A stretch of 64,000 nt of DNA from Peptococcaceae bacterium (GCA_017547685.1 JAFYPD010000028.1:2009-66008), one strand, 5' to 3'. Shown: positions 1 to 14,128, numbered from the stretch's first letter. Notes: generated by a model not told the origin, from the sequence alone. Translations and numbers: made by a program.

Positions 1-1498
1 TGAATGCAGCTTTGATTCTCTCATAATCGCCAGTGAAGTCCAGATACAGTGCAGGCATCTGGTCAAAGTAGATACCCATTGCACCGTAGTATTCAGCATT
101 GAATCTGAATACGTCTGCATCCCACAAGTCCGGAGTGTCATAGTTTGTGTGATACAGTTTGTTGTAGAAATCATGTACTGTTTCCTGATCTTCCTGCAGC
201 AGGAATCCATTGATTACAGTAGGAACACCTGCCAGATAGTATGAGAAGTCATCGGAGTAAGTATATGCCTGATAGCCTTCTGTCTTAACGCCTTCGGAGT
301 AGATACTCTTGTCAGCAGACAGTGGATATGTGTTGGAGTAGAAGTCGATCATGTTGTAGAATGCCGGAGCTGTATTGGAGTATACATATTCAGCGAATTT
401 ATACGCCGGCAGTTCGAAGTTGATGAATGCCAGAGTTGTGCCGATCCATTCCGGGTGCATGTTGTTGATCATTTCCCAAGCACCAACCGTCCAGTCATAC
501 TGAGTACCGTAACCGCCCCATTCTTCTGCACCATGCAGGCAGAATACGATATCGTTTTCAGGGACATAACCGGAGTCTTTCATTGCTTTTGCGATGGTCA
601 GAACTTCCGCAACAGCGCAGTTGTCGTCCTGGAAACCGTAGAAGTGGCAGTCATAGTGAGCACCGAAGATTACTCTGTTTTCGGAGCTCTTACCTTTGAT
701 TGTACCATAAACGTTGTAAGTGATACCGTCACCTTTGTCGGAAGTGATATTGTTAACTGTCAGAGTACCTGTTGCACTACCAACTTTGATTTTTTCCTGA
801 AGTTCTTTTGCATCAGCAGCGCCGATGGAACAAGCAGGGATAGACATTGGAGCACAGATATCATTGGAGTTCAGTGCATCATCTGCGATTTCAGCAAAGC
901 CGCCCGTCTGAGCGAACAGGATCGCTGCAGCGCCCTGATGTTCAGCTTCCAGCATTGGGTAAGTTACCCACCAATCAGCTCTTTGATTTACATCCGCCAA
1001 TACGATCTTGCCTTTTACGTCTAGGCCTTCGTATTCAGCAGCTGTTCCTGTGCCAACATATACGATTTCGCTAGTGATGCCGTCTGCATCCGTCCCTCTC
1101 GCTTCATAAGAATATACTTTGTATTCTTTGCCGTCGATTACCAGACTAGCGCCTCTTGCATCGAAGATGTCACATGGAGCACCTTCCTTTTGAACATCCT
1201 CAAGACCGAGATCCTTCATAACACCTACCAGATAGTCCGCAGCCTTATGTTCTGCTTCGGAACCTGCATTTCTGCCGCCCAAGTCCGGAGTAGAAAAGTA
1301 TTCAGGGTTAGTTGAAAGTTCATAAGCGATTTCATAGCCATAATCAGTATCGATGTTTCCAATAAATCCATCATACATTGCCTGCAGTTCATCAGGAATC
1401 GCATACGCTCCGTTATCATAAGTTCCGTCATCGCCACAGCCAGTCAGGCAAAGCGCCAGCAGCAAAACAGCTGCCAGCAAAGTCATCATTTTTTTCAT
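1..1498 (-). CDS. Lipoprotein, PA-domain/M28-family aminopeptidase (C-terminal end beyond window edge)
   Basis: Not in the ORF track because there is no stop in the window. In the stretches I translated by hand (positions 2-58, ~481-540 and 1381-1498) the minus frame is open from ATG 1498 (GGAGG at 1506-1510); the rest was not checked. The N-terminus MKKMMTLLAAVLLLALCLTGCGDD is a signal peptide plus lipobox. LHGAEEWGGYGTQYDW at ~490-540 matches the M28 metal-ligand GAEE motif. The + ORFs 455..1024 and 847..1074 are antisense shadows. Confidence 0.7.
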   Translation of the reverse strand, partial: MKKMMTLLAAVLLLALCLTGCGDDGTYDNGAYAIPDELQAMYDGFIGNIDTDYGYEIAYELSTNPEYFSTPDLGGRNAGSEAEHKAADYLVGVMKDLGLEDVQKEGAPCDIFDARGASLVIDGKEYKVYSYEARGTDADGITSEIVYVGTGTAAEYEGLDVKGKIVLADVNQRADWWVTYPMLEAEHQGAAAILFAQTGGFAEIADDALNSNDICAPMSIPACSIGAADAKELQEKIKVGSATGTLTVNNITSDKGDGITYNVYGTIKGKSSENRVIFGAHYDCHFYGFQDDNCAVAEVLTIAKAMKDSGYVPENDIVFCLHGAEEWGGYGTQYDWTVGAWEMINNMHPEWIGTTLAFINFELPAYKFAEYVYSNTAPAFYNMIDFYSNTYPLSADKSIYSEGVKTEGYQAYTYSDDFSYYLAGVPTVINGFLLQEDQETVHDFYNKLYHTNYDTPDLWDADVFRFNAEYYGAMGIYFDQMPALYLDFTGDYERIKAAF

Positions 1499-1612
1499 TG
1501 TAATTCCTCCTTGTTTTCTATCTCAACTGCTTTTGCAGAATGAGTACATTATGATTTTTTATTTTTCTTTCTAACTTCACTCAGTCGCTTTCTGTCCTCG
1601 TTGTCAATAAAG

Positions 1613-1862
1613 TTACTGATCAGAAGCAATGCCTGTGTTCTTCTGAATCTTCTTCAGTTCCTGCTGCATATTCTTGCGCAGCTTCAAATCCAAAGCGCCC
1701 AGAGGTTCGTCCAGCAGCAGAACCTGTGGTAGTCTTGCCGCAGCCGGACGGGCCAAGCAAAGTGATGAACTCATTATCGTGAATGTCCAGGCTGATACAG
1801 TCCAACACCGTTTCATCTCCAAAAGATTTGGAGATATTGCGTAGCGCAATTATCTTTTTCAT
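1613..1862 (-). pseudogene. Collapsed ABC-transporter ATPase remnant (PotA-like)
   Basis: ATG 1862 is preceded by AAAGGAG. It encodes [45 protein letters not shown] (Walker A). Three codons later, in another frame, comes [32 protein letters not shown] (Walker B/D-loop) followed by a stop. The Q-loop, LSGGQ signature and H-loop are absent. Confidence 0.75.
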
Positions 1863-2407
1863 TCTCTTTGCTCCTTTTTTCTTTGCTGCATAAGTCAGCA
1901 CAATTCCGAAAAGAGCACAAAAAAAGTGGCATGTCACTTCCGCAGCATGCCACTCGTAAAAATCATATGATAAAGATTGTCCAATTCGAAAATCCCCCCC
2001 TCCTATATCCGCCAATGGCGTAGAAAAGAGAGAAAGGGTACAAATAGATTCAATACCCCCACCCATAATGGCAGCGATACTGTACTGGAATCAACCGGAA
2101 TCACAATTAGATCAGAGTCTATATAGCAAAGATACTTTTACTACTCTTATTGATCATTTCACAAGTTCATGCCTGAGGCACTTTCGGTTATAAAGTAACC
2201 AACTTATAAAACTGAGCTTTTAACTCAACCAATAAGGCAACAGAAGTTGCCAACTGCCTTTACGCAGTTTGCGGCTTTTGACCCGGCTGTCCGTATGGCC
2301 TTAGCCGATGAATCATCGGCGGTCAAAAATCTTGCTTCGGAAACACTGTTCCAATTGAGATCCTGTTAAGGATACAACAAATTACTGAAAAAGTCAATAG
2401 CAGACAT

Positions 2408-2446
2408 ATCGCCCGCAGGATTTCTCCCACGGGCGATGATTTTTTA
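2408..2446 (+). terminator. Stem-loop plus T-run (orphan intrinsic-terminator-like hairpin)
   Basis: atcgcccg (2408-2415) pairs with cgggcgat (2430-2437) and is followed by gattttttt. No intact + strand gene lies upstream. Confidence 0.4.
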
Positions 2447-2451
2447 GCTAT

Positions 2452-2727
2452 CTAAAGGCTTGTACGCTGCCACTTTCCTTCCTGCTTTTCCTGCACCACA
2501 TATTTCTGTGCTGCTGTCACCAGCGCCTGATAATCCTCACGCTCTACAGCCATCTTGAACGTCAGTGAAAGGGCTTTGCTTCGATCTGCTCCACAGCCTG
2601 GATAGAAACCTGTTTCTGCTGAACACGCTCAATGGTTTGCTCCAATGCGGTAAGTTTCTCTTTGCGTTTTTCTCGCTTAAATTCCAGAACATTCAAATGC
2701 TCTTTGTGTTCGCCCTTTTGCTCCCAC
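2452..2727 (-). pseudogene. Frameshifted C-terminal remnant of a Mob/Pre (MobV-type) plasmid recombination/relaxase protein
   Basis: Two minus frames read EWEQKGEHKEHLNVLEFKREKRKEKLTALEQTIERVQQKQVSIQAVEQIEAKPFH* and LTFKMAVEREDYQALVTAAQKYVVQEKQEGKWQRTSL*. A coiled coil followed by an AKP...V..EDY..L..AA motif is what I remember from the C-terminal part of Mob_Pre proteins. There is no start codon and no N-terminal relaxase domain. Confidence 0.35.
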
Positions 2728-2830
2728 TCAGTAATTGCACAGCCGCGGCATAGTAATCTCGCCGATGCCGAAGATTTCGTGTTTCACCTGCTCGCCGGAG
2801 GCCACGCATAGTATTGTTTCGCCTTGCACC
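2728..2830 (-). pseudogene. Orphan duplicate of the uxaA 3' end (last ~30 codons plus stop)
   Basis: Translates to GETILCVASGEQVKHEIFGIGEITMPRLCNY*, compared with the intact gene end GEALLQMILRVASGELVKHEIFGIGEIAMPRLCNYC* at 3965-4075. About 74/80 nt are identical over 2729-2808 vs 3969-4048 by hand alignment. An in-frame stop lies immediately upstream of the fragment. Confidence 0.8.
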
Positions 2831-2968
2831 AACTGTTAAAATGTGGTATTCTATACACAGGAACGACAAGGTACAAATCATTACATTCATCACACCCTAT
2901 ACACAGCAGGCTTTCACACAACCATAACAGCACTTCCTTAAAATATCACAATTTCAGGAGGAATGTTT

Positions 2969-3889
2969 ATGTCAGACCATGCAAACAGAACTTACAAAGA
3001 CAGCGTGTTTTCAAAGTATTTTCGGGAAAACAAAGAAGGGCTTGTGGAACTCTTTAACGCCATTGAAGGAACCAGTTATCCGCTCGACACACCAGTAGTA
3101 GTAGAGACGCTGGAGGATGTACTATACAAGGAAAAAATCAACGATTTATCCTTTCGGCTGAATGAGCAGATACTGGTGCTGATAGAACATCAGTCAACAA
3201 TTAATGAAAATATGGCATTGCGTTTACTAATGTACGTGGCAAGGCTGTATGAAAAGCTGCTGAACCAGTGGGAAAAACGAGTTATGTATGAGGAAAGGCG
3301 GATTTTAATTCCGACACCAAAATTTGTGGTACTATATAACAGCAAAGCACCTTATCCGGAACATAGTGAACAATATTTATCCCAGTCATTTCTGGTAAAA
3401 GAGGATTACCCGGCACTAGAGTTGAAGGTAGATGTATATAATATTAATTATGGAGAAAATAACAAACTGCTGCAGAAAAGTAAACATCTGAATGATTACA
3501 GTCTATTTATTCATGCAATAAATCAGGAGTATACAGCCGGTAAACCTCTGACTGATGCAATTAAAGAAGCAATATCTTATTGTATTGAGCACGATATTAT
3601 GGGAAAATTTCTGCAAAAGAACGGAAGCGAGGTGCGAAACATGCTGATTGGTGAATGGAAAACGGAAGAAGCTATGGAATATATCGAGAAAAAAGCAAAA
3701 AAAGAAGGAGAAAAACTCGGTCGTACAGAAGAACGCGAAAAACTGATTCGTGCGTTCAGTGATTTGCTGACACCGGAACAGATTGCAGAAAAACTGCAGC
3801 TACCGGTAGAATCTATACTGGCAATTCTGCAAAATGCCACTGTGGTTGCAGAGCCGGAAGTATCTTACGAAGCAAAGAAAACAGAATAA
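2969..3889 (+). CDS. Rpn-family recombination-promoting nuclease / putative transposase (PD-(D/E)XK, YhgA-like)
   Basis: N-terminus MSDHANRTYKDSVFSKYFRENKEGLVELFNAI... and LVLIEHQSTINENMALRLLMYVARLYEKLL (E-x-Q nuclease core) are typical of the family. AGGAGG at 2956-2961 favours ATG 2969 over the track start 2963. Confidence 0.8.
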   Translation: MSDHANRTYKDSVFSKYFRENKEGLVELFNAIEGTSYPLDTPVVVETLEDVLYKEKINDLSFRLNEQILVLIEHQSTINENMALRLLMYVARLYEKLLNQWEKRVMYEERRILIPTPKFVVLYNSKAPYPEHSEQYLSQSFLVKEDYPALELKVDVYNINYGENNKLLQKSKHLNDYSLFIHAINQEYTAGKPLTDAIKEAISYCIEHDIMGKFLQKNGSEVRNMLIGEWKTEEAMEYIEKKAKKEGEKLGRTEEREKLIRAFSDLLTPEQIAEKLQLPVESILAILQNATVVAEPEVSYEAKKTE

Positions 3890-3895
3890 CGCTAC

Positions 3896-3951
3896 AAAAA
3901 CAACCCTCCTCTGCCCTGTCAGACTGACAACGCAAGGAGGGTTTTGTTTTT
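3896..3951. terminator. Bidirectional intrinsic terminator between the Rpn gene (+) and uxaA (-)
   Basis: aaaaacaaccctcct ... aggagggttttgttttt, a GC-rich stem flanked by an A-run and a T-run, placed between convergent stop codons at 3889 and 3965. Confidence 0.7.
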
Positions 3952-3964
3952 ACATATAGTTTAG

Positions 3965-5143
3965 TTAACAGTAATTGCACAGCCGCGGCATGGCAATCTC
4001 GCCGATGCCGAAAATTTCGTGTTTTACCAGCTCGCCGGAGGCCACGCGCAGAATCATCTGCAGCAGAGCTTCGCCCAGTTCTGCTATGGTCTGTTCCTGC
4101 CTTAGCGACGGGCTTGTGTCAAAGTCGATAAAGTCTTCCATCCAGGATGCGGTATGTTCGTTGCCAGTCAGTTTCAGCACCGGTGCAACGGGGTTGCCGC
4201 TGGGGGTTCCCCTTCCTGTGCTGAAGATGGTCAGCTGGGCACCGCCCGCTGTCATCTCGGCCACGGAACACACATCATAAGCGCAGGTATCCATCACCAC
4301 CGTACCTTTGGTATTCACCCTGTCGCAGGACTGCAGCACAGCCTGAATGGGCCGGGTGCCTGCCTTGTGAATGCAGCCCAGTGATTTCTCTTCCAGCGTG
4401 GTAATGCCGCCTGCCTTGTTGCCCTGCGACGGGTTGCCGCTGCGGATATTCTCACCCAAATCGATAAATTTCTGCTCACAGCGGGCCACAATGTCTAAAA
4501 TCTGCTGGCCGATTTCGTCTGTTGCGGCCTGTTTTGCCAGCACCTTCTCCGCACCCACAAACTCCGGCGTTTCACTGATAATGGATGTTGCGCCCAAATC
4601 TGCCAGGCGGTCGCACACATAGCCAATCACCAGATTGGCTGATAAACCCGATGTGGGGTCAGAGCCGCCGCAGTTGGTGCCCACAATCAAATCGGATATC
4701 GGGCACGGCACCCGGCTGCACTGTGCCGCCTGAGCAATCAATTCGCCGGCCAGCCGCTTCCCTTCGGCCACGGTGCGTTTCACACCGCCGCACTGCTGAA
4801 TCTCCACCGCTTCCACCGGTTTATCGGTCTGCAGCCGAATGGCTTCTTTCACAATCTCCCACTGCAGCTGTTCACAGCCCAGGCCAACCAGCAGCACACC
4901 GTACACATTGGGATTTGCCGCCAGCCCGGCCAGCAGTTTTAAGGTCATTGCTCTATCGCCAGCCACCTGTCCGCAGCCGTTCTGGTTATGGATGCCCACT
5001 GCACCGGGCAGATTGCGGGTAATCATTTCTGCCACATCACTGGAACAGGCGCAGGTTGGAATTACCAGCACATGATTGCGCACGCCCGCGCGGCCATCGG
5101 TCCGCCGATACCCCATAAAAGTAAACGCATCCTGTTTTTCCAT
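3965..5143 (-). CDS. uxaA: UxaA-family (altronate/galactarate-type) dehydratase, large catalytic subunit
   Basis: 392-aa ORF. MGYRRTDGRAGVRNHVLVIPTCACS..., GLGCEQ and GTNCGGSDPTSGLSANL are characteristic of the UxaA C-terminal domain. Confidence 0.85.
   Translation of the reverse strand: MEKQDAFTFMGYRRTDGRAGVRNHVLVIPTCACSSDVAEMITRNLPGAVGIHNQNGCGQVAGDRAMTLKLLAGLAANPNVYGVLLVGLGCEQLQWEIVKEAIRLQTDKPVEAVEIQQCGGVKRTVAEGKRLAGELIAQAAQCSRVPCPISDLIVGTNCGGSDPTSGLSANLVIGYVCDRLADLGATSIISETPEFVGAEKVLAKQAATDEIGQQILDIVARCEQKFIDLGENIRSGNPSQGNKAGGITTLEEKSLGCIHKAGTRPIQAVLQSCDRVNTKGTVVMDTCAYDVCSVAEMTAGGAQLTIFSTGRGTPSGNPVAPVLKLTGNEHTASWMEDFIDFDTSPSLRQEQTIAELGEALLQMILRVASGELVKHEIFGIGEIAMPRLCNYC
3969..4075. repeat. 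Direct-repeat partner (functional copy) of fragment 2728-2830
   Basis: See the hand alignment with 2728-2830; same orientation, 1241 bp apart. Confidence 0.8.
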
Positions 5144-9847: not shown

Positions 9848-9992
9848 AAAAACAGAAGTATCTAACAAATGGGGATTGCTGCGTTTCCAGCCAATTATTT
9901 ATCGCAGCACTCTTGCCCTGTTTCTGATTATTTTATATAATAAAAGTAAACTATAACAACTGGATTCTATCACAAACAGGAGCGTGATTTTT

Positions 9993-10514
9993 ATGAATGC
10001 GGCAAAACCATTCAACCCTGTTACTCTGGAAGAATTTGAACAGATGGAAAAAACACATCATGTAAACTATGAACTGATTGACGGAGTTGTTCTGATGGCG
10101 CCCAGCCCTTCCAGAGAGCATCAGAAAATTGCCAGCAACCTGCATTTTTCTTTGCGTACACAGTTAAAGGAAACCCGCTGTGATTCCCTTTACGAAATGG
10201 ACATTAAGTTTAACGGCAATGTATATAAGCCGGATATGATGGTATTCTGCGATGAAACCGCCGAACTTCCGGAGATTATATTTGAAATTTTAAGCCCTTC
10301 CACACGCCATACTGATTTGCGTATTAAAGTTGTGAAATACGAGGAAATGGGCGTGAAAGAATACTGGATTATCGACCCCAAAGTAAAGGTTATCACCATT
10401 CACGATTTTGTAAATGATACAGCTGAAACCTATGGTATTGAGGACACTGTTGTTTCCATGGCTCAACCAGAATTATCAATTCCAGCTGCAGTGATTTTTG
10501 AAAAAGTATTATAG
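9993..10514 (+). CDS. Uma2-family (DUF820) PD-(D/E)XK endonuclease
   Basis: YELIDGVVLMAPSPSREHQKIASNL..., PDMMVFC and EILSPSTRHTDLRIKVVKYEEMGVKEYWIIDP are the family signature. AGGAG at 9978-9982 favours ATG 9993 over GTG 9984. Confidence 0.85.
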   Translation: MNAAKPFNPVTLEEFEQMEKTHHVNYELIDGVVLMAPSPSREHQKIASNLHFSLRTQLKETRCDSLYEMDIKFNGNVYKPDMMVFCDETAELPEIIFEILSPSTRHTDLRIKVVKYEEMGVKEYWIIDPKVKVITIHDFVNDTAETYGIEDTVVSMAQPELSIPAAVIFEKVL

Positions 10515-10522
10515 AAACCCGA

Positions 10523-10553
10523 AAAGCGCTTATCCTGCATCGATAAGCGCTTT
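10523..10553. terminator. Hairpin between convergent genes (bidirectional terminator)
   Basis: 12-bp perfect stem aaagcgcttatc / gataagcgcttt with a 7-nt loop, placed between stops 10514 (+) and 10561 (-). Confidence 0.65.
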
Positions 10554-10560
10554 CTCTTTG

Positions 10561-11190
10561 CTATTTTCGTTTCGTCCGTTTGTTATTACGCACATAGCCC
10601 AGCTCACGGGTATATTTGTACCAGCTGCTGCGGGCACTGCCTGTAATATCGCAAGCCTCCTGGGCATCAATTTCGCCGGCTGCCCAGCGCTGCGCTGTGG
10701 CATGAAACAGCTCCCAGTCCATCTGTAACGGCGGACGGCCGGATTTTTTGCCCTCCTGCACAGCAGAACCAGAGCTGATACGCTGCTGCTCCTCCTCGCG
10801 GCGCTGCTGTAACTTACTCATATACAACAGCAGATTCAGCATCTGCTGTTCCATCTGCACACCAGCCTCACCCATGGCCTTATACATGCGGCTATCCAGC
10901 TGCACCGCTTCCTGCAGTACCACCACATCCACCTGCAGCTGCTTTGTTAACAGCTGCCACTCCGCAGCCATATCCTCCAGGGTGTAACCAAGACTGTCCA
11001 GCTCATCAACAAACAGCACGTCGCCTGCACGCAGCATATTGCGCAGAAACAGATAATTGCGCCGGTCAAAACTTCTGGTGCGAATATCGCCAAACAAAAA
11101 TCTGTCATCCTCCACCTGTTCCAGCATACGCTGCCGCATCGGGCTCTGCCCCTGTTCTTCTTCCCATTCTCTGATATAGCCGAACTTCAT
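10561..11190 (-). CDS. Serine-recombinase (resolvase/invertase)-like protein with degenerate catalytic site plus C-terminal HTH
   Basis: MKFGYIREWEEEQ aligns to the canonical M..GY.RVST..Q but has no Ser at the nucleophile position. GDVLFVDELDSLG replaces GD.L.V..LDRLGR. The C-terminus GEIDAQEACDITGSARSSWYKYTRELGY looks like an HTH. Confidence 0.6.
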   Translation of the reverse strand: MKFGYIREWEEEQGQSPMRQRMLEQVEDDRFLFGDIRTRSFDRRNYLFLRNMLRAGDVLFVDELDSLGYTLEDMAAEWQLLTKQLQVDVVVLQEAVQLDSRMYKAMGEAGVQMEQQMLNLLLYMSKLQQRREEEQQRISSGSAVQEGKKSGRPPLQMDWELFHATAQRWAAGEIDAQEACDITGSARSSWYKYTRELGYVRNNKRTKRK

Positions 11191-11215: not shown

Positions 11216-12484
11216 TTATATGTTTCCTTTCAACGCTGCTTTAATATTGCTCTTATATGCCTCCACACCCGGCTGATCAAAGGGATTTACCCCTGTTAAA
11301 TAACAGCTTACCGCACAGGCTTTCTCAAAAAAATACACCATATACCCGAATGATCTGGCACTCAGCTCACTTACCGTTAAGCGGATATTGGGCGTGCCAT
11401 TTTCCAGATGGGCTTTTCGGGCACTTTCCTCCACAATCTGGTTCAGTTCATGCATGGTTCCGGCTTTTCCGGCATATGCGCTGCCTTCCAGCGACACATC
11501 CCGGCGGATTTTCCCGATGGTCAGCACTGTTTCAAAAAACATCTGCCGCCCGTCCTGCAAAAACTGCCCCATGGAGTGCAAATCCGTAGACATCTGCAGT
11601 GACATCGGGATAACCCCTTTGCCCGCTTTACACTCGCTCTCACCGAAAAGCTGCTTCAGCCACTCGGTAAAATAGCGCAGCCTGCCCTCATATACTTCAA
11701 AAATTTCAATGACCTTACCCTGCTGCTGCAGCAGATACCGCAGCAGCCCATACTGATAACAGATATTTTCCGTTAAATCAGCATTGTTACAGGCTCTACA
11801 TGCTACTGCAGCACCCTCCAGCATCGATACGATATCGATACCAGCCACTGCGATTGGCAATAACCCCACCGGTGTTAACACCGAATACCGCCCGCCGATG
11901 TCATCGGGCACCACAAAGGTTTTGTAGCCCTGTTCATCTGCTTCTGCGCGCAATGTACCTTTCGACGCATCGGTGATGGCATAGATCCGTTTTGCCGCCT
12001 CTTTCAGGCCGTATCGCTCCCGCACATAGCCGCGCAGCAACTCAAAGGCGATAGAAGGCTCCAGCGTTGTGCCCGATTTGGAGATAACACAAAGGCAGAC
12101 TTCCTCATCATTGAGCCGTTCCAGCAGTTCCGTATAATAAATAGCACTCAAATGATGCCCCGCAAAATAAATGCGGGGGCGCTGCATTTTTTCTGCATTA
12201 TGCTCGTTGTAAAACGGCGACTGCAAAAGCTCGATACATGCCTTTGCACCTAAATAAGACCCGCCAATACCGATTACCACCAGAGCCGTACACTTCTGCC
12301 GGATTTCCTCTGCAGTATCCAGAATCTCCTGTATCAGTGCCGGCTCCACACGCAGAGGCCAGTCCACCCAGCCCGTGTAAGCATCCTGTTTTTTATTCAG
12401 TTTATTATGAATTTCGTTGAGTTTTGGTTGATACCGTGACCAGGCCAGCGAATCAGACTGTGCCCAGTAATCCAGTTTTAACAT
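11216..12484 (-). CDS. pgi: Glucose-6-phosphate isomerase
   Basis: 422 aa. GIGGSYLGAKA, ISKSGTTLEP, GGRYSVLTPVGLLP and the C-terminal FDQPGVEAYK are PGI signatures. Confidence 0.9.
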   Translation of the reverse strand: MLKLDYWAQSDSLAWSRYQPKLNEIHNKLNKKQDAYTGWVDWPLRVEPALIQEILDTAEEIRQKCTALVVIGIGGSYLGAKACIELLQSPFYNEHNAEKMQRPRIYFAGHHLSAIYYTELLERLNDEEVCLCVISKSGTTLEPSIAFELLRGYVRERYGLKEAAKRIYAITDASKGTLRAEADEQGYKTFVVPDDIGGRYSVLTPVGLLPIAVAGIDIVSMLEGAAVACRACNNADLTENICYQYGLLRYLLQQQGKVIEIFEVYEGRLRYFTEWLKQLFGESECKAGKGVIPMSLQMSTDLHSMGQFLQDGRQMFFETVLTIGKIRRDVSLEGSAYAGKAGTMHELNQIVEESARKAHLENGTPNIRLTVSELSARSFGYMVYFFEKACAVSCYLTGVNPFDQPGVEAYKSNIKAALKGNI

Positions 12485-12513
12485 AATCTTTTCACTTCAC
12501 TTTTTTTACATAT
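12371..12513. repeat. Direct-repeat partner (functional pgi 5' end plus ~30 bp upstream) of 13053-13194
   Basis: About 100/114 nt identical over the coding part by hand alignment. Similarity continues past the start codon into the RBS/leader. Confidence 0.8.
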
Positions 12514-12564
12514 TGTTTCCCCATACCTCGACGTAAGCGCCCAAAAGGTTACAGAAAGCCCTGC

Positions 12565-12927
12565 TTGCTATTAGAACCACCGACGCAATGCCGGTGCGCA
12601 ATATGCTGTATGATGCACTGCAATATGAAAATCAATTGCAGGAAATCACGGCAAAACATCGAATTAAAAAAGAAAGTGATCAACACCTGTACCAATGCCG
12701 GACTAACATTACAATCAGATGACAAGGAGGATATCAATATGTGTAAAGCAATCGACGAAATGCGGGAAGACAGCCGTAACGAAGGCCGCAATGAAGGCCG
12801 TAAGGAAGGCATCGAAATCGGTCGTAAAGAAATGGCTGCCGCATTGTTAAAAGAAAAAATATTTGCCAATGATAAAATTGCTGAACTGACCAAACTCTCC
12901 ATCGAGGAAATTCAACAGCTGCAGTAG
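12565..12927 (+). pseudogene. Truncated, internally deleted and frameshifted Rpn-family nuclease/transposase gene
   Basis: One frame reads TTDAMPVRNMLYDALQYENQLQEITAKHRIKKE...*, the core region of a second Rpn subfamily. Another frame reads MCKAIDEMREDSRNEGRNEGRKEGIEIGRKEMAAALLKEKIFANDKIAELTKLSIEEIQQLQ*, the typical C-terminus. The N-terminal ~80 aa and the middle section are missing. Confidence 0.65.
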
Positions 12928-12983
12928 CAGCAACTGGCTCAGGCATAGCATCAGCTATACTACACGATACAACATTTCACACA

Positions 12984-13010
12984 GAGTGGCGTATACAGCC
13001 GCTCTTTTTT
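12984..13010 (+). terminator. Intrinsic terminator of the Rpn remnant
   Basis: gagtggc-gtataca-gccgctc (one G-U pair) followed by tttttt. Confidence 0.55.
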
Positions 13011-13049
13011 CATGTAATTTCATCGAACCTTCCAACGTGATGATCCATT

Positions 13050-13166
13050 TCAGCCCGTGTAGGCATCCTCTTTTGTATTCAGTTTATTATGAACTTCGTT
13101 GCGTTTTGGTTGATACCGTAACCAGGCCAATAAATCAGACTGTACCCAGCAATCCAGTTTCCTCAT
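13050..13166 (-). pseudogene. Orphan duplicate of the pgi 5' end (start codon plus 38 codons, then stop)
   Basis: Encodes MRKLDCWVQSDLLAWLRYQPKRNEVHNKLNTKEDAYTG*, compared with the intact MLKLDYWAQSDSLAWSRYQPKLNEIHNKLNKKQDAYTGWVDW... Confidence 0.8.
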
Positions 13167-13246
13167 GATTATTTCACTTTTCTTTTTTATCATTACACTT
13201 CTGCCCGCTGTCATTCTGAGCGAGCGAAGCGAAGTTGAAGAATCTC

Positions 13247-14128
13247 TTACCCTCTGTACGTTTTCACAATGCCTTCCAGATAATCCAGAAAGTCATCCCG
13301 TAAATTATCCCGCTGCAGTGCAAATTCCACTGTTGCCTCTAAAAAGCCAAGCTTGTCGCCCACATCATGGCGGCGGCCTTTAAAGGCATATGCCAGCATT
13401 TTTTCCTTTAATGCCAGTGTTTTCAATGCATCCGTCAGCTGAATTTCATTTCCGGCACCCGGCGCTGTTTTTTCCAGAATATCAAACACAGCCGGTGTAA
13501 TAATATAGCGGCCCATAATTGCCACATTGCTCGGCGCTACATCCGGTTTTGGCTTTTCCACCAGAGAACGAACCGTATACAGCCCATCACTGATTTTATC
13601 CCCGTCTACAATCCCATATTTGGAGATATCCTCCCGGGCAACCTCTTTTACACCCAGAATACTGCACTGTTCCCGCTCGTACAAATCCATCATCTGCTTT
13701 AAACATGGATAGCCAGGGCTGTCTACAATATCATCCCCCAGCATGACCGCAAAGGGTTCATTACCGATAAAATTTTTCGCACAGTACACCGCATGGCCTA
13801 ACCCCAGCGCTGTTTTCTGGCGCACAAACTGAATATTTGCCATACCCGCAATATCCTGAATCTGCTCCAGCATATCATATTTGCCCTTCTTCTCCAGTTC
13901 CATTTCCAGTTCTACCGAACGGTCAAAATGATCCTCTATAACCGATTTGTACCGGCCAATAATAATTAAAATATCCTCAATGCCGCTTTCCACAGCCTCC
14001 TCCACAATATACTGGATGGTAGGCTTGTCCACCACCGGCAGCATCTCCTTGGGCTGCGATTTGGTCGCCGGTAAAAACCGTGTACCGAAACCAGCGGCCG
14101 GGATAATCGCTTTTGTTATTTTTTGCAT
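13247..14128 (-). CDS. galU: UTP--glucose-1-phosphate uridylyltransferase
   Basis: KAIIPAAGFGTRFLPATKSQPKEMLPVVDKPTIQYIVEEA and VEKP motifs. Confidence 0.9.
   Translation of the reverse strand: MQKITKAIIPAAGFGTRFLPATKSQPKEMLPVVDKPTIQYIVEEAVESGIEDILIIIGRYKSVIEDHFDRSVELEMELEKKGKYDMLEQIQDIAGMANIQFVRQKTALGLGHAVYCAKNFIGNEPFAVMLGDDIVDSPGYPCLKQMMDLYEREQCSILGVKEVAREDISKYGIVDGDKISDGLYTVRSLVEKPKPDVAPSNVAIMGRYIITPAVFDILEKTAPGAGNEIQLTDALKTLALKEKMLAYAFKGRRHDVGDKLGFLEATVEFALQRDNLRDDFLDYLEGIVKTYRG

Follow-up and report, generated by a model that had tools for sequence, protein, structure and literature searches.

O-antigen and capsule loci are known for mosaic and hyperdiverse flanking genes, e.g. gnd beside rfb in Escherichia coli. 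Insertion with long target duplication, for which Nobusato in 2000 is reportedly named alongside Furuta in 2010, and homology-facilitated illegitimate recombination (HFIR), of which work by de Vries and Wackernagel in 2002 and by Prudhomme in 2002 is said to form the literature, are close to the case analysed here. Long target duplications, often covering a start or stop codon, are known around restriction-modification genes, including the lone nuclease gene mcrA, and double-strand breakage was put forward as what these cases have in common (PMC2853133). Experiments in which recircularised fragments integrated by a single crossover gave gene-end duplications of 109-950 bp (PMC3240628), and the arrays of orphan immunity genes and toxin tips in the type VI secretion (T6SS), Rhs and contact-dependent inhibition (CDI) systems have been attributed to HFIR (Kirchberger 2017, PMC5361080). 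For the rpn genes, tandem arrays and duplicated tails were already noted by Zhong et al., and the genes were reported without flanking duplications (PMC10400941). Here we analyse a stretch of 64,000 nt from a Peptococcaceae bacterium (GCA_017547685.1, JAFYPD010000028.1:2009-66008), referred to as the window throughout, in which the 5' end of the gene pgi is found twice, around the remains of an Rpn gene. Our analysis suggests, with a probability of about 0.6, that this duplicated pgi 5' end is the footprint of additive recombination between two pgi contexts, and not a target-site duplication made by a transposase-like activity of Rpn.

The functional pgi (11216-12484, minus strand) encodes 422 amino acids and matches NF010697 with an E-value of 5.6e-154. 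A repeat search of the window found its 5' end in a direct repeat of 143 nt, at 12369-12511 and 13051-13193, with 85% identity and a start-to-start distance of 682 nt. The self-BLAST of the window gives 86% over 138 nt (E-value 2e-40) for the same pair, the top-ranked short repeat in the 64 kb. The functional copy (12369-12511, minus strand) has a leader of ~27 nt, in which the motif GAAGTGAA is conserved, ahead of the ATG and 38 codons; its coding part lies at 12371-12484. The orphan copy (13051-13193, minus strand) consists of a leader, the ATG, 38 codons and a TGA; it is contiguous with galU and located 81 nt downstream of it, and its coding part at 13053-13166 reads MRKLDCWVQSDLLAWLRYQPKRNEVHNKLNTKEDAYTG, followed by the TGA at the junction. 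The two coding parts agree at 100 of 114 nt, and the similarity ends ~27-30 nt upstream of the ATG. All of these features, i.e. the pgi start with leader and 38 codons occurring twice in direct orientation 682 bp apart, and the stop in the orphan, had been described in the initial annotation and are confirmed here.

The two copies enclose 539 nt. The joint region next to the orphan (13012-13050) has ~20 nt loosely common to other alleles and ~19-25 nt found in galU-type strains only, which may be the last codons of a lost neighbour gene; a search for the 40-nt filler of this joint elsewhere returned galU-type contigs only. The same layout is present in the independent assemblies L081 and L082, and the orphan is 100% identical across the three galU-type assemblies. 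An assembly artefact was considered and rejected, the window, L081 and L082 being three independent assemblies in agreement.

The element between the copies is a decayed Rpn gene. The open reading frame (ORF) at 12565-12927 matches positions 179-273 of the 273 positions of TIGR01784 with an E-value of 2e-6 and 27.8 bits, against a curated cut-off of 52.1. Intact Rpn genes of 320-321 amino acids with PF04754 are encoded at the same site, divergent from pgi, in the conspecific contigs L091-L098, L201 and L202. Alignment to L093 shows that the window gene equals the intact gene of this type minus two segments of 390 nt and 326 nt. The first deletion left a scar (12567-12582) where the intact allele has 390 nt (alignment gap at 12566/12583 in the window and 7919/7528 in L093), and removed codons 1-95, including D68, E89 and Q91, together with 104 nt of the intergenic region. 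The scar is followed by a fragment of codons ~96-126 (AMPVRNMLYDALQYENQLQEITAKHRIKKE; 12583-12673, plus strand), 98-99% identical to L091 and L093 and matching P0007 and P0009. The 326-nt deletion shifts the frame at 12673/12674, and 3' of it lies the C-terminal part (12674-12927, plus strand), which covers the TIGR01784 positions 179-273; window 12674-13010 aligns to L093 6788-7111. The PD-(D/E)XK core D...ExQ/K, which appears as RD68V...IE89NQ91 in the intact allele, is missing in the window copy, and judged by its sequence this nuclease gene is dead. An intrinsic terminator (12983-13011, plus strand) with a hairpin at 12983-13005 and a T-run ends the gene, and the homology between the alleles of the locus starts here. 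The element had first been described as an Rpn gene that is truncated, frameshifted and missing an internal part, and that has a terminator of its own; this was accurate, and both deletions could be mapped against the intact conspecific allele.

We compared the locus among conspecific contigs along a backbone of pgi, a resolvase-like gene, Uma2, RqcH, RelA/SpoT and RecO through uxaA, with 95-99% nucleotide identity. An Rpn gene of the RpnL/RpnS type lies divergently upstream of pgi in every strain sampled of this species, and three unrelated flanks begin ~0-40 nt past its terminator. Six contigs continue with the 3' end of glmS (Rpn decayed in L083-L086, intact in L091 and L202), and four with rmlA/rmlB of a different polysaccharide cluster (L093, L094, L097 and L098, Rpn intact). 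The remaining three (the window, L081 and L082, Rpn decayed) continue with the orphan pgi 5' end, galU and a glycan cluster of the ABC-transporter type. The galU-like UTP-glucose-1-phosphate uridylyltransferase gene (13247-14128, minus strand; PF00483) is the last gene of this glycan locus, which occupies ~13.2-23.3 kb of the window. The unrelated flanks past the terminator therefore make Rpn-pgi a fixed border, beyond which a cell-surface glycan locus is hypervariable; the orphan lies on that variable side. It occurs with galU only, and with a decayed Rpn only; around the intact Rpn alleles at the pgi site, of both the glmS and the rml type, we found no flanking repeat of any neighbour gene.

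The window has one more Rpn gene, Rpn1, and it is also bracketed by a duplicated gene end. The last ~28 uxaA codons are present as an orphan copy (2729-2814, minus strand), which ends in ...AATTACTGA and is followed by the intact Rpn1 of 308 amino acids (2963-3889, plus strand; PF04754 with 27.7 bits versus a cut-off of 21; catalytic motifs NDLSF...IEHQ). A hairpin terminator formed by an inverted repeat (3893-3952) lies between Rpn1 and the functional gene of a uxaA-like dehydratase large subunit (3965-5143, minus strand), the 3' end of which is the repeat copy 3969-4054. The 86-nt repeat is 91% identical in the window and 91-94% across contigs, encloses 1154 nt, and is present together with Rpn1 in all conspecific contigs reaching them. 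Sister species with a UxaA of 88-90% identity have a single uxaA copy, no Rpn and two LysR genes downstream, and the window has no such LysR genes. The uxaA orphan (...TACTGA) resembles the end of the sister gene (...AATTAC TGC TGA) but is three bases short, and the functional copy ends in TGT TAA, running straight into the Rpn1 terminator; from this comparison the repeat boundary in the last codon is the limit of gene homology. The proposal of two loci with one layout holds for the bracketing of Rpn1 by the uxaA end, but not for the geometry, as the Rpn terminator is abutted by the functional copy at uxaA and by the orphan at pgi.

In the favoured reading, DNA would have been exchanged at the Rpn-pgi border through one homologous interaction in the pgi 5' region and one illegitimate joint ~40 nt beyond the Rpn terminator, either by HFIR or through a recircularised fragment and a single crossover. 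The two pgi 5' ends would both have been kept, with no replacement. Homology between the two contexts would then end at one repeat boundary, ~27-30 nt before the ATG, and the illegitimate joint would be the other, at codon 38; the same logic could apply to uxaA/Rpn1, with the boundary in the last uxaA codon. Rpn is, in this favoured reading, a landmark or passenger of recombination-prone and horizontally exchanged DNA.

Several observations point to such an exchange. Both parental contexts exist, namely Rpn-pgi without an orphan in L091, L093 and L202, and galU-pgi without Rpn in L010, where galU is directly followed by pgi with no Rpn between them; this contig is 1.7 kb long and comes from a distant relative (pgi 79% identical at the amino acid level). 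On the variable side, the last elements of the window allele are galU and, from another pgi allele, a leader and 38 codons; such a galU-pgi junction is intact in L010. At both Rpn loci one repeat boundary is located at the end of gene homology (the last uxaA codon; the pgi leader) and the other is an abrupt joint. Neither locus has terminal inverted repeats, and no transposase, integrase or recombinase is encoded within either repeat-bounded interval. The repeats of 86 and 143 nt are diverged and their ends differ between strains, which does not fit an insertion sequence or an autonomous transposon. The resolvase-like protein encoded next to pgi, which is PF00239-like, has GYIREWEEEQ where the catalytic Ser motif belongs. 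The lack of inverted repeats, of an inner recombinase and of this Ser together exclude a transposon- or integrase-type insertion.

The pgi gene itself varies in a way that bears on the origin of the orphan. Between conspecific strains its 5' two-thirds vary strongly and in a mosaic pattern. Within pgi we counted 3-16 differences per 100 nt, with peaks of 12-16, versus 0-4 in the downstream gene; of the differences that separate cluster members, a disproportionate number (7-17) fall in the first 45 residues. The divergence of 14-15% between orphan and functional copy is within this allelic range, and we therefore take it to be ordinary allelic divergence at this border. The window and the intact-Rpn alleles have the 82 nt upstream of the pgi ATG in common, which places the functional pgi, with its leader, in the resident Rpn-pgi arrangement; positions 12300-12566 of the window align to L093 7919-8185. 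The pgi-proximal part of the Rpn-pgi intergenic region (12512-12566, minus strand), outside the repeat and common to the conspecifics with an intact Rpn, is a part of the same resident arrangement. As separate observations on pgi diversity, L082 differs from the window by a patch of six substitutions in the pgi 5' end with the remainder of the 8.8 kb being 99.9% identical, and the gene next to pgi is at least 99% identical between strains, versus nucleotide differences of up to 16% in 100-nt windows of pgi, where 12370-12484 stands out most.

As for the direction of the exchange, we have a slight preference for a galU-pgi-type allele of the glycan locus having been joined to the resident, already decayed Rpn-pgi border, over the nearly as probable alternative of an Rpn cassette having entered a galU-pgi operon. 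The preference comes from the confinement of the orphan to decayed Rpn alleles and from the same decayed cassette being also found with the commoner glmS flank.

The proposed exchange resembles described cases in several respects. Single-crossover integration and HFIR also combine one homologous interaction with one illegitimate joint and leave gene-end duplications of 109-950 bp around the insert (PMC3240628), but those results come from E. coli plasmid substrates and from the transformation of competent species, and the process here is read from its product alone. The T6SS, Rhs and CDI arrays likewise arise by additive replacement at a conserved border that orphans gene ends and antidote genes (PMC5361080); the orphaned pieces there are the toxin system's own, and here they are the ends of the housekeeping genes pgi and uxaA. 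With gnd at rfb our locus shares a housekeeping gene at the border of a hypervariable glycan locus, with raised and patchy diversity that falls with distance, and differs by the Rpn gene at the border and by the retained truncated second copy of the flanking gene.

Some of our results weigh against additive recombination with Rpn as a passenger. We found no galU-pgi strain without Rpn in this species, i.e. no pre-event genome that would fix the direction of the event. An intact pgi with the N-terminus of the orphan is absent from the 120 best homologues, retrieved with a chimeric query, and from the 13 members of the window's 90% cluster. The two pgi copies differ at nine non-synonymous and two synonymous codons, which would also fit neutral decay of a duplicate made in situ; since constraint on the pgi N-terminus is weak, neither these counts nor the polarisation with relatives tell decay in situ apart from divergence between alleles. 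The two strongest short direct repeats in the self-BLAST bracket the only two Rpn genes of the window. Finally, the three alleles of the locus all break within ~40 nt of the Rpn terminator, more clustering than a pure passenger role predicts.

We ranked the rival explanations with in-situ duplication at an Rpn insertion first, the relic of a second pgi paralogue next and an Rpn-driven process after it. For the first, which we consider unlikely though it survives best, an intact Rpn cassette from terminator to promoter (~1.2 kb) would have entered an ancestral galU-pgi operon and duplicated 143 bp over the pgi start, after which the orphan decayed; Rpn1 would have entered likewise at the uxaA stop, and other strains would have lost galU and the orphan later through a swap of the glycan locus. 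The locus does look like the long target duplications of restriction-modification genes: no transposase or integrase accompanies the nuclease or defence gene, which lies between direct repeats tens to hundreds of bp long; these cover a neighbour's start or stop so that the target gene stays intact, and relatives are single-copy. When the criteria of Furuta 2010 (PMC2853133) are applied, the repeats are longer than 30 bp at both loci, the inserts are shorter than 20 kb and hold no inner mobility gene, and the start (pgi) or the stop region (uxaA) is spanned; at pgi, L010 formally supplies the single-copy relative with galU and pgi adjacent. In this species Rpn1 and the repeat around it are fixed, and sister species with one copy lack both; the 9:2 ratio of non-synonymous to synonymous changes agrees with neutral decay.

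The same comparison also has differences. The bracketed gene here belongs to an Rpn toxin-antitoxin system, the repeat copies share 85-91% identity instead of being almost the same, the pgi duplication is allele-specific, and the flanks are not cleanly collinear with an empty site of the same species. No conspecific empty site was found at pgi, where the comparison is with L010 only (a short contig from a distant relative), and at uxaA the sister species are single-copy but the distal flank is not collinear, owing to the LysR genes missing from the window. An insertion in situ would need extra steps to account for an orphan that goes only with decayed Rpn and for intact glmS- and rml-type alleles without it. 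One boundary of each repeat falls where gene homology runs out, at uxaA no more than one codon from the stop; this would be a coincidence for a staggered break but is expected for recombination between contexts, and the repeat divergence equals the ordinary allelic divergence of pgi.

A second pgi paralogue is an improbable source of the orphan. The genome would once have had both galU-pgi and Rpn-pgi, and a deletion or inversion would have run from codon 38 of the galU-linked copy to just past the Rpn terminator, eliminating the copy that had become redundant. Two related metagenome-assembled genomes (MAGs) have two pgi contigs each (L002 with L010; L001 with L003), with different upstream neighbours such as galU versus a surface-protein gene, in accordance with a paralogue; but these MAGs may be strain mixtures, and it seems that either the pgi 5' flank is a variable junction clade-wide or the two-pgi bins mix strains. 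The strain of L085 has almost no Rpn-linked pgi, implying another pgi elsewhere in that strain: L085 1178-1260, corresponding to window 11216-12520, retains ~30 nt of codons 22-33 and the leader, and these remains sit between the resolvase-like gene and an Rpn remnant. Against the paralogue, no full-length pgi of the orphan type was found among the 120 best homologues and the 13 cluster members. A simple deletion from a glmS-type ancestor would also remove glmS, and a search of the 64-kb window found glmS absent.

Equally improbable is Rpn-driven capture, the idea of the initial annotation; here the nuclease, in cis or in trans, would cut next to the gene that encodes it, and duplicated gene ends would be a signature of Rpn mobility. 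It would account for the bracketing of both window Rpn genes by repeats, and for the clustering at the Rpn 3' end of the three-allele breakpoints and of a duplicated RpnS tail in L091. Overexpressed Rpn proteins promote RecA-independent recombination (PMC5350276), RpnL was speculated to initiate local recombination (Zhong et al., PMC10400941), and long target duplication has been tied to double-strand breakage (Furuta et al., PMC2853133). The Rpn gene next to the orphan has no catalytic residues, however, and Rpn genes are in any case enriched in variable, defence-rich regions. Gene-end duplication in this genome is moreover not specific to Rpn, since a third duplication, of a gene 5' end, brackets an M28 peptidase gene with no Rpn inside. 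One copy of this third repeat (81 nt, 94% identity), with a Shine-Dalgarno sequence and a lipoprotein signal peptide, heads the peptidase gene (1434-1514, minus strand), and its partner is ~830 nt past the left end of the window, heading a frameshifted pseudogene of a solute-binding protein; the pair is at L179 10914-10994 and 13256-13334.

The surveys of other Rpn loci also argue against a general mechanism. None of the E. coli K-12 genes rpnA-E is flanked by a direct repeat of more than 15 nt. We examined 80 metagenomic loci of Rpn homologues with 36-46% identity and found no clear duplicates of neighbour-gene ends, with one ambiguous case (L171), and 70 control loci (850 kb) had three repeats of the gene-end type. 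A first screen for flank repeats had scored 34 of 73 loci as positive, but it was rejected as support because inspection revealed tandem Rpn arrays, duplicated tails and array spacers. In L171 a 98-nt direct repeat (1529-1626 and 4279-4375; 90% identity) brackets an Rpn gene and one of three paralogous acyltransferase genes; one of its copies overlaps the junction of two acyltransferase genes, and it is possibly a further gene-end duplicate beside Rpn.

A shared insertion or capture mechanism linked to Rpn, as proposed in the initial annotation, is thus not supported as a general one, given the intact alleles at the same site, E. coli rpnA-E, the 80 loci and the duplication around the peptidase gene. 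That annotation had named a missing association of Rpn genes elsewhere with duplicated gene ends as evidence that would count against it, and this is largely what E. coli and the metagenomic loci gave. Nor is the layout undescribed, being known for restriction-modification genes (PMC2853133) and, for single-crossover duplications, from experiments (PMC3240628), and on its own the finding reveals no new mobility mechanism. The fallback suggestion of that annotation, that Rpn genes hitch-hike on homology-assisted recombination, agrees better with the evidence. Because breakpoints cluster at Rpn 3' ends, a causal role of the nuclease stays alive with a small probability. There is a slim chance that Rpn nucleases, in cis or through a paralogue such as Rpn1, break both strands beside their own genes and make Rpn borders hot spots for duplication-forming additive recombination, as the second class of nucleases with long target duplication after restriction-modification. 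If so, the breakage would explain why the three glycan alleles, the RpnS tail duplication and the two orphaned gene ends all break within tens of bases of Rpn.

Integration of the attL/attR type that restores the end of the target gene, catalysed by the neighbouring resolvase-like protein, is close to refuted, for although diverged gene-end duplicates are typical of elements that integrate into gene ends, e.g. e14 in icd, and the PF00239-like gene is directly downstream of pgi, this gene is outside the repeat-bounded segment and lacks the catalytic Ser motif, the 682-bp unit holds no recombinase, and the ends vary between strains.

If our reading of additive recombination is right, the locus would be a clear natural example of housekeeping gene ends orphaned by an additive, not replacive, exchange of a hypervariable surface-glycan locus, with an Rpn toxin-antitoxin gene acting as the fixed border of that locus. 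The two Rpn cases extend the pattern of long target duplication, so far documented for restriction-modification genes, and are worth a note since rpn genes were reported without duplications (PMC10400941).

The decayed Rpn gene retains a small RpnS-like ORF, a candidate for an orphan antitoxin. The RpnS-like stand-alone ORF of 62 amino acids (12739-12927, plus strand) matches TIGR01784 positions 223-273 with an E-value of 4.8e-6 and 26.6 bits, below the NCBIfam cut-off, and a putative Shine-Dalgarno sequence AAGGAGG (12724-12730, plus strand) is located 8 nt before its ATG at 12739. It was called as a gene in independent assemblies. A hallmark of RpnS is a variable number of four-residue repeats that begin 8-20 residues after the RpnS Met (Zhong 2023, PMC10400941). 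In our ORF the four-residue units EGRN-EGRK-EGIE start at residue 15, and among the window, L081, L091 and P0001-P0005 there are 0-3 EGRx units, all in frame. Its length across strains is 62, 64, 65, 68, 71 or 73 amino acids, with two alternative C-terminal helices. The AlphaFold2 model has a mean confidence (pLDDT) of 73.6 and helices at residues 17-39, 44-51 and 55-61. The best geometric match by Foldseek is E. coli RpnA-S (7th0), with a template modelling (TM) score of 0.80 normalised to the target, a root mean square deviation of 1.4 A and 28% identity; its E-value is 2, among many helix-turn-helix-like matches. RpnL/RpnS intragenic toxin-antitoxin systems, with an internal ribosome-binding site and start codon for the small C-terminal protein, and stand-alone RpnSs genes such as ypaA have been described (PMC10400941), and the window differs from them in that the toxin part is deleted and only the predicted orphan RpnS-like ORF is left. 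An RpnS-only ORF with a strain-dependent repeat number is worth testing as an antitoxin candidate.

This ORF is the most variable stretch between otherwise near-identical strains (window 12739-12927; L081 6112-6309; L091 224-418). It is frameshifted in L083/L084, and L091 has an intact Rpn plus an additional stand-alone RpnS copy. Among the human-gut Rpn homologues (L099-L178, e.g. L119, L136, L145 and L176) we observed tandem arrays of up to several copies, with spacers of 150-300 nt that are 85-97% identical; two short contigs carry the same 55-nt repeat at both ends, which such arrays probably caused during assembly.

Downstream of pgi the window encodes the resolvase-like gene and a Uma2 nuclease-like gene (together 9984-11190; Uma2 at 9984-10514 and the resolvase-like gene at 10561-11190). 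The Uma2 protein matches the PADLOC candidate system PDC-S03, and PADLOC gave no match for Rpn1, Rpn2 (the Rpn of the pgi locus) or RpnS. The block of Rpn, pgi, resolvase-like gene and Uma2 is species-specific and missing beside RqcH in the sister species (L192), and this neighbourhood looks like a small defence islet that includes pgi. Between Uma2 and RqcH an ATPase gene with AAA_14 and DUF4143 domains is present, truncated or absent depending on the strain (L083, L091 and L180). Transcription of pgi is probably by read-through from galU, because the hairpin on the minus strand has no T-run and no sigma-70-like promoter was found. Exact look-up of the window proteins returned none for pgi and Rpn1, and the galU product, the uxaA product and the SAF subunit did match.

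Close to the uxaA orphan, window 1620-2728 up to the peptidase gene has gene fragments only, including the N-terminus of an ABC ATPase, and is a pseudogene graveyard at the synteny break with the sister species. A coiled-coil-like frame starting right after the uxaA orphan was tried as an Rpn tail, and it had no significant family match. In some strains Rpn1 is interrupted by an insertion (L183 8922-9054; L185 7992-8038, corresponding to window ~3508). This insertion starts an ORF, MSHYKHLTPKEREKIL, which from its sequence looks like a transposase of the IS30 family.

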